Of a DNA stretch of 64,000 nucleotides, positions 30,302-34,777 are shown in pieces. Source of the stretch: Hormoscilla sp. (lineage in GTDB: Bacteria > Cyanobacteriota > Cyanobacteriia > Cyanobacteriales > Desertifilaceae); NCBI GenBank assembly GCA_051439505.1, contig JBFRWI010000100.1, positions 69,424-133,423 of the forward strand, given 5' to 3'. Within the stretch, counting starts at the first letter, position 1. Each line of letters starts with the position of its first letter. The notes under the pieces were generated by a model. It was not told the origin of the DNA. It ran no database searches and worked only from the letters and a program-made list of their open reading frames with translations. The translations under genes were made by a program, and so were the position numbers.

Positions 30302-33028
30302 TTACAAACCATGACCGATGAGAATGAACGGTGCCCAGTAATAGGGGTGTTCGAGGTTTTGCTCGATGCCTGGAGTTTGACCTGTAATCAGAGCAATTTG
30401 CGCTTGACGTAACGCCTCGGTTTTGCTAAGATTGTCATTAAGCTGCTGATAAAATGTATCCATCAGGACGTGGGTGCCCAAATCGTCAACTTTCCATAGA
30501 GAGGCGATCGCGGCTTTAGCCCCAGTGCGTTGAATTTGATAGCCAAAGCCCAAAATTTCGTGGCCGTTTCCCTGGATACCGCCCACCGCAGTCTCGCAGG
30601 CACTGAACACGACTAAGTCTACATCGGGTAAGGACCAGTTTTCAATATCGTGCAGGGAAACCCGATCGCCATTGCCAAACAAGATAAAGGACTCTTCGGG
30701 ATGACCCTTGACAAAAGCGGCATGGGTGGCAAAATGGATAATATGGAACTTATTCAGGTGGGGAACCGTCGCCTCTGGACTGAATTCTTCGTCTACCAAT
30801 TTTGTGGTATTTTCAATTGTGTTGGCCAAGGTTTCCACCTCCAGTCCCGCAAAGGGTAATCCGGAAAATTCAAAGGCGCGATCGCGGACTTGGAAGCTAT
30901 GATTACCCTCTGCGAATGCAGCTGCTAACACTTGTGGTTCGTCCGCATGTTGGCTATCGAAATTAGTGAGGCTGACAGCGGTGATATTATTAATACCGAA
31001 GCGTTCGATCAGCCATTTATTCCCATCATACAGGGCCGCCAGGGGAATATATCGGAGTTGACCGTCCGCAGCATAAATGATAGTTTGAGCCTCAGCTTCC
31101 TGGAGATCCCGTTCGATGGGTTTTATTAACCAGTCATAGAACTGTTTCGCCGGAGACTGAACGAAAGGAACTGGTTTGCGGCGGGTCATCAAATTCCGCC
31201 GAAATTTCCCGATCGCCCGCTGGAAGTCTTGCTGGTTAACAGCAACAGTGCGACGGATGGGCGGCCCGTAACGGGTAACCAGAATCAACTCCAGTCGGTC
31301 TGGTAAAATCAAGGGATGGAGAATGACGGCATTTTCTTCCAGTCCATCCAGATAAGTATGCAACCTGTCGAGTCCTGTCAAATTGAGACTTTCTCCCCCC
31401 GTCCTTTCGTTAAGTTGTGCCGCCAGGGAGACAACCTCCCGAGATTTAATAAATTGGTTAAATTGCTTGGCGATCGCCCCTTGGGCCTGCTGCAACTCGA
31501 CGATCCGCTGTTGCTGGGCCCTTGTCCGTCGGGAGACGGGAATCTGTTGTAAGGAGGCCAGTTCTTTACCCAGTGCGACAGCTTCTGCTTGAATGCTACC
31601 ATGATTATCTAAGACTTCTTGTTCCGAGCCATGTAAATGCACCCCTTGGGCGGTTTGGGCGTTTCCCTCCATTTTCTGGAAATACTGGTGCAGTTCTTGC
31701 ACCTTGAGTAGATCGAGGATGTGGTGCGCTTCGGTCACCCGGTCTTGCTGTAGCAACAGACCTGCTAAATGGCGATAGGTATCGGCAACAGTTCCAGTGT
31801 AAGATTGCTGCTGTTGCAGGGATAGCACCTGCAAATCTTTGCGAATGGCTTCGGTGATGTTAACGGCTTGTTTGTAAAAGGCTATGGCTAATTCTAGCTG
31901 GTTTTGCTTCTCTAGAATCTCACCCATGTTGCCGAGGGCCACCACTTCTCCGGGCCGATCGCCCACTTCTTTGAGAATCACCAATGCTTGGTGATATAGT
32001 TCTAAAGCTTTGTCATACTCCCCCATACTTTTGTAAACTGTACCCAGGCTATCCAGGGTATTCCCAGTCCCGGCCCGATCGCCTATTTCTTGAAAAATTC
32101 CCAAAGCTTCATTTAGCACTTCTAGGGCTTTATCCTGCTGACCCAGGCGATCGTAAGTAAAGCCAATGTTATTGAGAGTGTTTCCCGTGGCCGGGCGATC
32201 GCCGAGTTCCTGAAAAATCTCCAAAGCTTGCTGATAAAAGTCCAAAGCTTTGTCATGCTGTTCTAAAGCAGTGTAAGCGAAACCCATGTTATGGAGGATT
32301 TTGCCTTCATTAGCGCGATCGCCCCTTTTGCGAATCAGATCCAGGGCCTGCTGATAGGAGTCCTGGGCTTCGGAATACTCGCCCAGGCGATGGTGAACGA
32401 CGCCGATATGATTGAGCAGCACCCCCTCGCCCTTGGGATTACCTAAATCTTGAAAAATAGTTAATGCTTGCTCGTATAACTCTCGTGCTGTGGGATATCG
32501 GCCCTGATTTTCGTATATTAATCCTAGATTATTCAGGGTACGTGCTGCACCGGGTTTGTCTCCTACTAGCTTGCGCAGGGTCAGGGCTTGTCGATATAAT
32601 AGTAAAGCCCGATCGTAATTACCCTGCTGTTGATAAACTCCCCCCATGCTATTGAGAGTGCTACCCGTCCCCCGGCGATCGCCTATTTCCTGACGAATAG
32701 CTAAAGCTTGGCTAAAGGACTCCAGGGCCCGATCGTACTCCCCCAATTTATAATATACTGCGCCAAGTTTGTGCAGGGTATTGCCAATTCTCGGGCGATC
32801 GCCCTGGTTGCGGCGCATTTCCAGAACCTGTCTATAATTTTGCAATGCTTCTCGATACTCGCCCCTGCCATACAGTTGGTTTCCCTCCAAGTATAGGCGA
32901 TCGGCTGCAGTTTTTGTCGGTGCTTGGGCAACAGTTGCTGCGATCTGAGTCACCCCCGGGAATGCAGGACTCAAGCATAGCAGTAGGGTAGCAGCAATTA
33001 GGCTCACATGGTTAAGACGGGGTTGCAT
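30302..33028 (-). CDS. Exported TPR + CHAT (caspase-like) protease
   Basis: Signal peptide from MQPRL; about nine TPR repeats; catalytic HFATHA and FSACETA; ASLWKVDD; HPYYWAPF. Confidence 0.93.
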   Translation of the reverse strand: MQPRLNHVSLIAATLLLCLSPAFPGVTQIAATVAQAPTKTAADRLYLEGNQLYGRGEYREALQNYRQVLEMRRNQGDRPRIGNTLHKLGAVYYKLGEYDRALESFSQALAIRQEIGDRRGTGSTLNSMGGVYQQQGNYDRALLLYRQALTLRKLVGDKPGAARTLNNLGLIYENQGRYPTARELYEQALTIFQDLGNPKGEGVLLNHIGVVHHRLGEYSEAQDSYQQALDLIRKRGDRANEGKILHNMGFAYTALEQHDKALDFYQQALEIFQELGDRPATGNTLNNIGFTYDRLGQQDKALEVLNEALGIFQEIGDRAGTGNTLDSLGTVYKSMGEYDKALELYHQALVILKEVGDRPGEVVALGNMGEILEKQNQLELAIAFYKQAVNITEAIRKDLQVLSLQQQQSYTGTVADTYRHLAGLLLQQDRVTEAHHILDLLKVQELHQYFQKMEGNAQTAQGVHLHGSEQEVLDNHGSIQAEAVALGKELASLQQIPVSRRTRAQQQRIVELQQAQGAIAKQFNQFIKSREVVSLAAQLNERTGGESLNLTGLDRLHTYLDGLEENAVILHPLILPDRLELILVTRYGPPIRRTVAVNQQDFQRAIGKFRRNLMTRRKPVPFVQSPAKQFYDWLIKPIERDLQEAEAQTIIYAADGQLRYIPLAALYDGNKWLIERFGINNITAVSLTNFDSQHADEPQVLAAAFAEGNHSFQVRDRAFEFSGLPFAGLEVETLANTIENTTKLVDEEFSPEATVPHLNKFHIIHFATHAAFVKGHPEESFILFGNGDRVSLHDIENWSLPDVDLVVFSACETAVGGIQGNGHEILGFGYQIQRTGAKAAIASLWKVDDLGTHVLMDTFYQQLNDNLSKTEALRQAQIALITGQTPGIEQNLEHPYYWAPFILIGHGL

Positions 33029-33239
33029 AATTAGTTCTCCACAAATATGAATAATTTTTCGTGCAAAATTATTTTTCTTTCGACCAAGGCAGGGAGCGAT
33101 CGCAAATATGTTAACCATACTTACGTCTCTCTACTATTAAAGCTAAAGCTAAAAAGTAAAGATCTCGGGTAGAAACCCAGGGTAAACGCACGCTTCGCTA
33201 AATTTGTATCTATAGCGAACCTCAATCATCAGTCAAGAC

Positions 33240-33452
33240 TTAGTTAACCTTGTTCGGATCTTCTTTTTCCTCCTCGGGCGCGATCGCCTCTTGGGGTTCT
33301 GGCGCTGGTGTCGGATCTTCATCATCATCGTCCAGCATTATCGTCTCTTGGTCCATAATCATCTCTGCTGGTTCCTGACAACTCGATACAGTTAAACACA
33401 AAAGTAGGATGCTAGCTCCTATGGGGACAATATATTTTATACGCGATCGCAT
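33240..33452 (-). CDS. Small acidic lipoprotein A ([11 protein letters not shown] motif)
   Basis: RBS GGAGGAAG; lipobox LTVSSC; paralogue at 33510-33704. Confidence 0.8.
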   Translation of the reverse strand: MRSRIKYIVPIGASILLLCLTVSSCQEPAEMIMDQETIMLDDDDEDPTPAPEPQEAIAPEEEKEDPNKVN

Positions 33453-33509
33453 TTTATCTTCCTCCGAACATGCTAACTGTTCGTAATCATATCATAACCT
33501 CGTCTATCT

Positions 33510-33704
33510 TTAATCATTTGTCCGATCTTCTTTCTCCTCCTCGGGCCCGATCGTCTCTTGCGGTTCTGGCGCTGGTGTCGGATCTTCATCATCATCGTCC
33601 AGCATGATCGTCCCTTGAGGTGCCCCCGCACAACTCCATACCGTCAGGGACATGAGTAGAAGCACAGAGATAATTTGGACATTTGTTTTCAGACGCGATC
33701 GCAT
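33510..33704 (-). CDS. Small acidic lipoprotein B ([11 protein letters not shown] motif)
   Basis: RBS GAGGAG; lipobox LTVWSC; mature core nearly identical to lipoprotein A. Confidence 0.8.
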
Positions 33705-33838: not shown

Positions 33839-34063
33839 ATGAATAATTGGCAAGAACAGATTCATATCGACCCCAAGGTTTGTCACGGTAAACCTTGTAT
33901 CAAAGGAACCCGCATTATGGTTTCAGTTATCCTGGATAACCTGGCTGATTTTTCGGGCCGTCCGCGGACCGTGGGACTGACATTAGAAGAAATTGTCGAG
34001 GAGTATCCGCCGTTGACTTTAGACAATGTGCGGGCGGCGATCGCTTATGCTAAAATCATTTGA
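33839..34063 (+). CDS. DUF433 family antitoxin, probably damaged
   Basis: [29 protein letters not shown]; apparent 8-aa insertion and altered C-terminus; no toxin follows. Confidence 0.8.
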
Positions 34064-34119
34064 GTTAACTCTGCAGCAAATGCCGCCGATCTTGTGTTTT
34101 GCAATGGTCGCGATCGCAT
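34045..34119 (-). pseudogene. Possible 5' remnant of a third MRSR-lipoprotein gene
   Basis: Nearly the same GGAGGAAGATAAAATGCGATCGCG RBS/start context as 33452 (one extra A), but the frame ends after 24 codons inside the DUF433 gene. Confidence 0.45.
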
Positions 34120-34195
34120 TTTTATCTTCCTCCCTGTGGTCTTGCACCAGTTGGTATGTGAATATTATACCCGCTCATGGTGGGCGGTGCCCACC

Positions 34196-34777
34196 CTACG
34201 ACTCTTCCTCCTCGAAATCATCATCGAAGAGAATAGTTACTTGACCCACTGCTAAGCAACCCGGAAGATTCGGTCCCGTAGGACAGGGAGTTAATAATTC
34301 CAGATTATCCCTAGTTTTTTCGACATTTCTCATGTCGTTAATTTCCTGAAAAATGGCTTGAGATTGCTGCACTAATTCGATCGCTCTATCTTTTTCTTTT
34401 AATTTATCGTAAACTAACCCCATATTGTTCAGAGTCTTAGCTTCCCCCGCCTTGTCCCCAATTTGCCTGCGTATTTCTAATGATTTCTGAAATGATGCTA
34501 ACGCCTGCTGATAATTTCCCTGCTGGTAATAAACGCCCCCCATGCTGTTCAGAGTCCGGCCAACCATTGCGATCGGGCCCGTTTCTCTGTAAATTGCTAA
34601 TGCTTGTTCCAATGTTGCCACAGTTGCATCCAGATCGGAGTTACGATAAGAAATAACTGCCTCTTGATAAATTCGATCGGGTTCTGCTTGGGTTGGTGCT
34701 GGTTCAGAGCAAGATGTCGTCAAGCAGAGTAGGGCCGTGGCCATAATTACGAGCCGGCGGTTAACAGGCGATCGCAT
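34196..34777 (-). CDS. TPR lipoprotein with C-terminal Cys pair and TILFDDDFEEEES tail
   Basis: MRS start; lipobox LTTSC; three TPRs; CPTGPNLPGC. Confidence 0.85.
   Translation of the reverse strand: MRSPVNRRLVIMATALLCLTTSCSEPAPTQAEPDRIYQEAVISYRNSDLDATVATLEQALAIYRETGPIAMVGRTLNSMGGVYYQQGNYQQALASFQKSLEIRRQIGDKAGEAKTLNNMGLVYDKLKEKDRAIELVQQSQAIFQEINDMRNVEKTRDNLELLTPCPTGPNLPGCLAVGQVTILFDDDFEEEES

Follow-up and report, generated by a model that had tools for sequence, protein, structure and literature searches.

A predicted protease–partner module with a candidate nine-residue motif beside an exported-type TPR-CHAT gene in Hormoscilla

We analysed a window of 64,000 nucleotides from the cyanobacterium Hormoscilla sp. 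(assembly GCA_051439505.1, contig JBFRWI010000100.1), in which a gene for a TPR-CHAT protein lies near two short predicted lipoprotein genes and a TPR lipoprotein gene. The sequences argue that this locus is a real protease–partner module carrying a candidate nine-residue motif, for which a function can be predicted. The reading that we prefer, with a probability of about 0.35, is that motif copies with Arg before a run of three Asp residues, found in another genus, would be cut sites, and that the Leu or Phe copies in the window would act as securin-like pseudosubstrates. When all readings considered below are taken together, some direct contact between the motif and the enzyme is likely.

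An earlier, sequence-only reading of this DNA had described four minus-strand open reading frames (ORFs), TPR and CHAT domains, an intact His and Cys, and three motif copies, and the ORFs, Pfam matches and alignments bear this out. It had written the motif as TI[ML][LF]DDD, which all three carriers contain and which is incomplete: a Gln two places ahead of the Thr is conserved as well, giving Q-x-[TE]-I-[ML]-[LF]-D-D-D. The copies, all on the minus strand, are QETIMLDDD (33324..33350) in a predicted 70-residue protein, QGTIMLDDD (33591..33617) in a predicted 64-residue protein and QVTILFDDD (34217..34243) at the C-terminal end of the TPR lipoprotein, and they differ by synonymous codons. In six frames of the 6.47-Mb host genome, TI[ML][LF]DDD occurs three times, each within about 0.9 kb of this locus, and a looser DNA pattern, run on 400 other genomes, matches 34 times in 33 of them; the cluster is therefore far above chance. 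Among the 29 of these 34 matches that were inspected, none has a CHAT gene within 1.5 kb and none lies in a short lipoprotein. A fourth pattern match in the host genome (G000:C102) was dropped, being antisense to a long gene. Three pattern matches in viral contigs are not near CHAT genes, and the two plasmid CHAT loci read, of four, have no motif carrier. On one plasmid (NZ_AP017561.1, Pseudanabaena), four TPR-CHAT matches cluster with two caspase-family genes, and none of the eight genes scanned carries the motif. Elsewhere in the host genome, the acidic linker ahead of the CHAT domain of a 1,841-residue CHAT fusion (G000:C223:4010-9532), which by eye resembles a haemagglutinin, contains PQDEIVLDDA, a relaxed match to the motif that may be chance.

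The three carriers had been taken to be mutually unrelated, and this does not hold. The genes for the 70-residue protein (33240..33452; lipobox VSSC, mature part acidic and Pro-rich) and the 64-residue protein (33510..33704; VWSC) have 97 nucleotides in common at 93% identity and thus represent one duplication, with three synonymous and six non-synonymous codon differences over the compared stretch. The TPR lipoprotein (34196..34777; 193 residues, TTSC, with a Cys pair ahead of the motif and a Pfam TPR match) has its best other match within the genome in the N-terminus of the TPR-CHAT protein (32% over 197 residues). The short proteins match nothing in Pfam. Export signals had been claimed for all four proteins; each looks signal-like by eye, and the lipoboxes range from canonical (VSSC) through near-canonical (TTSC) to non-canonical (VWSC), and a relative of the short proteins, P0003, has no Cys at that position. 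Export and lipidation of the module proteins are thus predictions from signals judged by eye.

Relatives of the short proteins are rare. A word search left three of six candidates standing, two being the window's own; a profile search found three proteins among 1.84 billion representatives, one a 32-residue fragment; and 400 genomes of the order gave four weak matches (E 0.005–0.008) in long ORFs, none convincing. P0003 (62 residues) shares the N-terminus of the short proteins, has different flanks and contains two motif copies. The motif is also present in four relatives of the TPR lipoprotein from databases, at 90–92% identity, of which two are alike except for the start. The window CHAT clade (P0009–P0012, which includes P0011 and P0012 as CHATs of 62–67% identity) has a support of 100; contigs of equal length suggest that P0130 lies with the CHAT P0010, and P0129 with P0008. 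In two overlapping contigs of sequencing run X5 the order is TPR lipoprotein, DUF433, short gene, CHAT; in a contig of run X15 the TPR gene is joined to a short gene with no DUF433 gene between; and run X7 holds a further or altered copy of the short gene. On this sequence evidence the module is conserved in related strains. At the corresponding site it is missing from all four same-genus genomes, three of which (G001, G002 and G004) retain a CHAT-gene relic of 60–191 bp, while G003 keeps nothing. The module therefore goes back to an ancestor of part of the genus at least, and its loss has been frequent.

The TPR-CHAT protein (30302..33028, minus strand; 908 residues) has an N-terminus that resembles a signal peptide by eye, about ten 40-residue TPRs and a CHAT domain at residues 625–905. 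Pfam reports TPR_12 and CHAT (PF12770, E 2e-63, 214.8 bits against a cut-off of 24). The start at 33028 is preferred over 33118 because a GGAG ribosome site stands there and homologues begin there. The columns of the putative catalytic His769 (HFATH769A; 30722..30724) and Cys811 (SAC811ET; 30596..30598) are invariant in 79 sequences, and His769 aligns with H585 of the craspase TPR-CHAT protein. A third residue, Asp849 (WKVDD; 30482..30484), is a candidate Arg-binding S1 residue; it is invariant in alignments of 22 and 79 sequences and kept in the HetF-like protein of the host genome. It may be the counterpart of the separase S1 Asp, for which a profile search returned no separase alignment. 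A 716-residue craspase chain, identified through H585 as the Scalindua enzyme (PMC9729208, partial text), has WKVRS in this column, so that the Asp is missing from an enzyme that cuts between Leu and Asp. Cleavage after Asp is rejected on this column, since the window protein keeps the Asp common to the Arg-cutting HetF type. The adjacent Leu850 occurs in 4 of 20 aligned rows, every one from the window clade, and Leu850, His776 and His823 are found in that clade alone. By domain and dyad the protein is a CHAT-family member and a predicted protease, and it is not HetF, a DdvA-type protein or craspase.

Related proteases are plentiful. The host genome has 38 CHAT matches, and in cyanobacteria at large TPR-CHAT proteins with a signal-like N-terminus are numerous: of 8,000 candidates scored, 2,842 match at E ≤ 1e-40. 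Collection scans with the window CHAT gave distant relatives only, and Atlas searches gave generic TPR clusters or nothing. None of 15 other host CHAT loci has a short gene of the window type; these loci lie mostly among genes that, by eye, resemble haemagglutinin, TpsB, DUF928 and CHASE2 genes, a neighbourhood for which our literature search found no dedicated paper.

Does the motif accompany other TPR-CHAT genes? Of 26 loci whose CHAT proteins are the nearest C-terminal homologues (56–61% identity), three have a lipoprotein directly upstream of CHAT that contains PQGT[AV]LRDDD; at many of the others the neighbour is a leucine-rich-repeat gene, or there is none. The motif thus recurs beside homologous TPR-CHAT genes in an Arg form at these three loci and is not general to CHAT orthologues. 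A DNA pattern for this Arg form matched 63 of 401 genomes, mostly as single Ser-codon matches. Tight clusters occur in one genus only, g38 of family f36, and in each of its five cluster-bearing genomes (G168, G213, G254, G267 and G280) a TPR-CHAT gene stands beside them; 16 regions with singletons were fetched, and none has a CHAT gene. The g38 sample comprises eight genomes. One has no pattern match (G306), and in G136 and G048 both CHAT and lipoprotein are missing at the same site and one motif copy is left. The g38 carriers are three unrelated types of predicted exported protein with 1–3 copies, Arg standing before DDD: a protein with a signal and a small Cys-pair domain that belongs to no Pfam family (1–3 copies), a lipoprotein with a helical domain (1–2 copies) and a TPR protein (ESNIQRDDDEDP). 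This Arg is encoded by four different codons. Two CHAT proteins (L166 and L206) bear an in-cis Leu copy, [EQ]DSTILDDAD, just past the signal, and a third (L205) does not; such a copy occurs in 3 of 121 long database proteins. In several g38 loci the Arg-form partners and the in-cis Leu copy coexist with one enzyme. The proposal that the motif accompanies exported-type TPR-CHAT proteins thereby gains a second family, with unrelated carriers beside a homologous CHAT, and the doubled copy in P0003. The self/non-self signalling that the sequence-only reading had also suggested gains no support from these data, nor is it contradicted by them.

Two observations stand beside these loci. At nine loci (L150, L151, L153, L156, L157, L168, L169, L033 and L037), genes of another TPR-CHAT clade stand in a back-to-back or head-to-head arrangement with a signal-bearing leucine-rich-repeat gene (Pfam check for L150 only). 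In 16 of 301 genomes there is a small protein (L166:3182-3733 and relatives) with a signal and, at its C-terminus, a Cys-pair domain; neither Pfam nor NCBIfam assigns it to a family, and the Atlas gave no usable match.

The likeness of the two motif forms was first seen by eye, and profiles were made afterwards. With a profile of 23 distinct g38 copies, the window 64-residue, TPR and 70-residue proteins rank 1, 10 and 237 of 15,955 ORFs. Reciprocally, when 144,413 windows drawn from 43 CHAT loci are scored with a profile of five window-clade copies, g38 carriers take the six best places, and the best three exceed all 1.79 million background windows. A hidden Markov model of the g38 lipoproteins matches the 64-residue protein at E 0.0077; when the two sets of lipoproteins were compared profile to profile, the signal region alone aligned (probability 41%). 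Leu or Phe in the window and Arg in g38 stand in exact register, at a position that we infer to be P1.

How might the motif act on the enzyme? We propose that the motif on the three upstream proteins, predicted to be membrane-anchored, would bind the active-site cleft of the neighbouring TPR-CHAT protein, itself predicted to be exported. The residue before DDD would occupy P1, where the enzyme would prefer Arg. Leu and Phe copies would then be uncuttable, leaving the enzyme tethered and held off, and the Arg copies of g38 would be cut, so that the domains behind them would be shed; the threshold would be determined by the dosage of the short-peptide genes. Binding in the cleft is favoured because Asp849 is kept, because both forms coexist with one g38 enzyme, and because two window-clade copies lie at the very C-terminus (1–6 residues from the motif end in the TPR lipoprotein and in P0003), where cutting would therefore free nothing folded. 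A more speculative generalisation, to which we give only tentative credence, is a one-residue code: Q-x-[TN]-x-hydrophobic-R/DDD, cut after Arg, would mark co-encoded substrates for shedding, and in its Leu/Phe form the motif, borne in cis or by tiny lipoproteins, would gate the exported TPR-CHAT protein as a bacterial securin in a separase-like envelope circuit.

The pseudosubstrate reading draws on the clustering of the motif, its doubling in P0003, the Arg form beside TPR-CHAT genes in five genomes, the reciprocal profile ranks, and the single copy kept in G136 and G048, which lack CHAT at the site. By analogy, HetF cuts after Arg (PMC9457339, partial text), and the HetF-like protein has the Asp849 residue, which the craspase cutting between Leu and Asp lacks; securin likewise swaps the P1 Arg for a large hydrophobic residue (PMC10317155, partial text). 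Several points weigh against it. The closest CHAT homologues have no motif carrier at 23 of 26 loci, and the second-lineage evidence comes from one genus and therefore counts as one independent event. The g38 copies were gathered with a pattern that requires Arg, which makes their uniformity partly circular, and two degenerate copies have no Arg. In genus g100, carriers show Gly (SPIILG[DE]DD and N[TA]NIIGNDN, a weaker, by-eye match) beside Asp-bearing enzymes, and a copy in g61 is degenerate. Trees made by quick methods with a long-branch root do not resolve the window clade as sister to g38. A g38-copy profile over ORFs found no Arg-form partner in the host genome, which leaves the enzyme without a visible substrate. 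The fragment P0008 has DED for DDD, motif invariance among TPR-lipoprotein relatives at 90–92% identity is weak evidence, Leu850 beside Asp849 could have altered the pocket, and the cut sites of craspase orthologues are not conserved (PMC11106740, partial text).

A second reading is that the motif is cut in both lineages and that the specificity of the window enzyme has shifted to cleavage behind Leu or Phe, freeing short acidic peptides or anchored proteins. Carriers do agree within each locus (Leu/Phe in the window, Arg in g38, Gly in g100), one craspase TPR-CHAT protein cuts between Leu and Asp, with other sites in its orthologues (PMC11106740, partial text), and the window clade has its own Leu850, His776 and His823. 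Asp849 is nevertheless kept, and is missing from the enzyme that does cut between Leu and Asp; moreover, cleavage so close to the C-terminus of the TPR lipoprotein and P0003 would free no folded domain. We regard this switch as less likely than the pseudosubstrate reading, yet close to it. The motif might instead be a hydrophobic-acidic ligand of the TPR groove, a membrane tether or an allosteric switch, with the R/L/F/G position reflecting lineage specificity and not P1. The closest natural solved relatives of the TPR region are peptide-binding TPRs (GPSM2/Pins and kinesin light chain), one to three copies in low-complexity linkers would suit avidity, and the residue varies by lineage while Asp849 is constant. 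An Arg kept by four codons in a fixed place before DDD, however, fits an Arg-specific protease, and the TPR region as a whole has no net positive charge (45 Lys/Arg against 52 Asp/Glu, a figure that is not specific to the groove); groove binding, too, is less likely than the pseudosubstrate reading and close to it. Finally, there may be no functional link at all: the short genes would have arisen recently, as by-products of HIP1-site duplication within a locus that is unstable, the motif would be shared by descent, and the Arg likeness would be convergence in acidic linkers. The narrow range of the short genes, the empty site in four of four same-genus genomes, the HIP1 sequence GCGATCGC inside three gene starts and a broken start, and the three synonymous against six non-synonymous differences of the paralogues all speak for this. 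The reciprocal profile ranks, the motif kept and even doubled as flanks change, the synonymous codon differences among its three copies and the synteny in other strains speak against it, and we hold the absence of any link to be improbable.

The setting of the locus bears on its history. The host genome has 48% GC and 6,450 GCGATCGC (HIP1) sites; HIP1 abundance is a cyanobacterial marker, and the names of homologues also point to a cyanobacterium. Sequencing runs that contain at least half of the window are marine sediment metagenomes, all from one study and possibly the origin of the DNA, so that the organism is likely marine. RNA-run contigs also span the locus, and such contigs are not informative on transcription. 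Purine-rich ribosome sites precede all four module gene starts. The genes had been presented as a co-oriented set; they do share a strand and are not contiguous, as the run is interrupted between its first two members by a plus-strand DUF433 gene (33839..34063; Pfam E 3e-21), a broken gene start on the minus strand (34045..34135), in which a ribosome site resembling that of the 70-residue gene and the first four codons are followed by unrelated sequence, and a short dispersed repeat (34135..34201, no strand) present at many sites across the genus. The DUF433 gene has a shorter 3′ end than the copies of relatives and follows an NAGPA gene in G002 and G004; it is not between the module genes in run X15, and it is likely a later insertion outside the module. 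The sequence ATGCGATCGC, which contains HIP1, opens three gene starts and the broken start (33452, 33704, 34119 and 34777), and may have promoted duplications and rearrangements of the locus.

Divergent from the module lies a Rhomboid-family gene (34842-35549, plus strand; Pfam E 1e-20), which, like the module, is missing at the site in the four same-genus genomes. It reads GSNG where the rhomboid catalytic motif is GASG, so that it may be inactive. On the other side, a 158-residue protein (29712-30188, minus strand) has no Pfam, NCBIfam or PADLOC family; the host genome has two more copies, and G001 and G004 each carry a pair of nearby ones. Further away on the minus strand, a haloperoxidase-like gene (38307-41471; DUF6851, VCPO) is fused to GDSL, Ig-like and RTX parts, and its neighbour (41613-43664) has sequence in common with it.

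How does the module compare with known systems? Our literature search found no substrate or regulator of the exported TPR-CHAT type and no description of such a protease–partner module; subscription papers and supplements, which lay outside its scope, could list such neighbourhoods. Other caspase neighbourhoods are described by Kaur et al. (PMC8195603, partial text). In craspase (Csx29–Csx30) and the SAVED-CHAT/PCaspase–PCi systems, a CHAT protease is likewise encoded beside its substrate or inhibitor, and PCi, a folded inhibitor of a C14 protease, is the nearest operon-encoded inhibitor (bioRxiv 2023.06.23.546230, partial text). Csx29 and SAVED-CHAT/PCaspase are, however, cytoplasmic and activated by CRISPR or nucleotides. 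Near the window CHAT, no gRAMP/Cas7-11, Csx30 or CRISPR array was found among 12 proteins (Pfam) or 6 (PADLOC), and PADLOC gave nothing on the 6 beyond generic TPR models and one weak match. The nearest periplasmic case, and the one periplasmic TPR-CHAT protein whose structure is solved, is DdvA of Myxococcus xanthus, with a His–Cys dyad in the resting state (PMC11506125 and PMC6061681, partial texts), and its profile matches the window CHAT weakly (E 6e-6). DdvA acts as a transmembrane anti-sigma factor and has a partner sigma factor of the extracytoplasmic function (ECF) class, and neither feature is seen here: the TPRs of the window protein start right behind the N-terminal hydrophobic stretch, and Pfam finds no sigma-factor family among the scanned neighbours. 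The accessible part of PMC11506125 names no partner lipoprotein for DdvA.

HetF of Anabaena cuts PatU3 after Arg117 (PMC9457339, partial text), and thus pairs a cyanobacterial CHAT protease with a dedicated substrate; it has the Asp849 column in common with the window CHAT. In HetF, an N-terminal CHAT is followed by a transmembrane segment and by TPRs in the periplasm, unlike the signal-TPR-CHAT order of the window protein, which does not match the NCBIfam HetF model NF045509; a HetF-like gene elsewhere in the genome matches it at E 3e-227, under the cut-off.

The closest parallel to the preferred pseudosubstrate reading is separase with securin. There, a TPR-like and caspase-fold protease binds the P1 Arg of its substrates through an Asp, and securin, an extended pseudosubstrate, inhibits it with a large hydrophobic residue at that position (PMC10317155, partial text). 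The two loci described here give a concrete candidate of nine residues, in which the difference between Leu and Arg serves as an inherent control. If the decoy reading is true, they would represent securin-type pseudosubstrate control of a separase-fold protease in bacteria, outside the cytoplasm. The separase–securin pair is eukaryotic and intracellular and uses an (S/D/E)xExxR motif, whereas the window and g38 proteins carry Q-x-[TN]-x-hydrophobic-[R/L/F]-DDD on bacterial proteins predicted to be exported and membrane-anchored.

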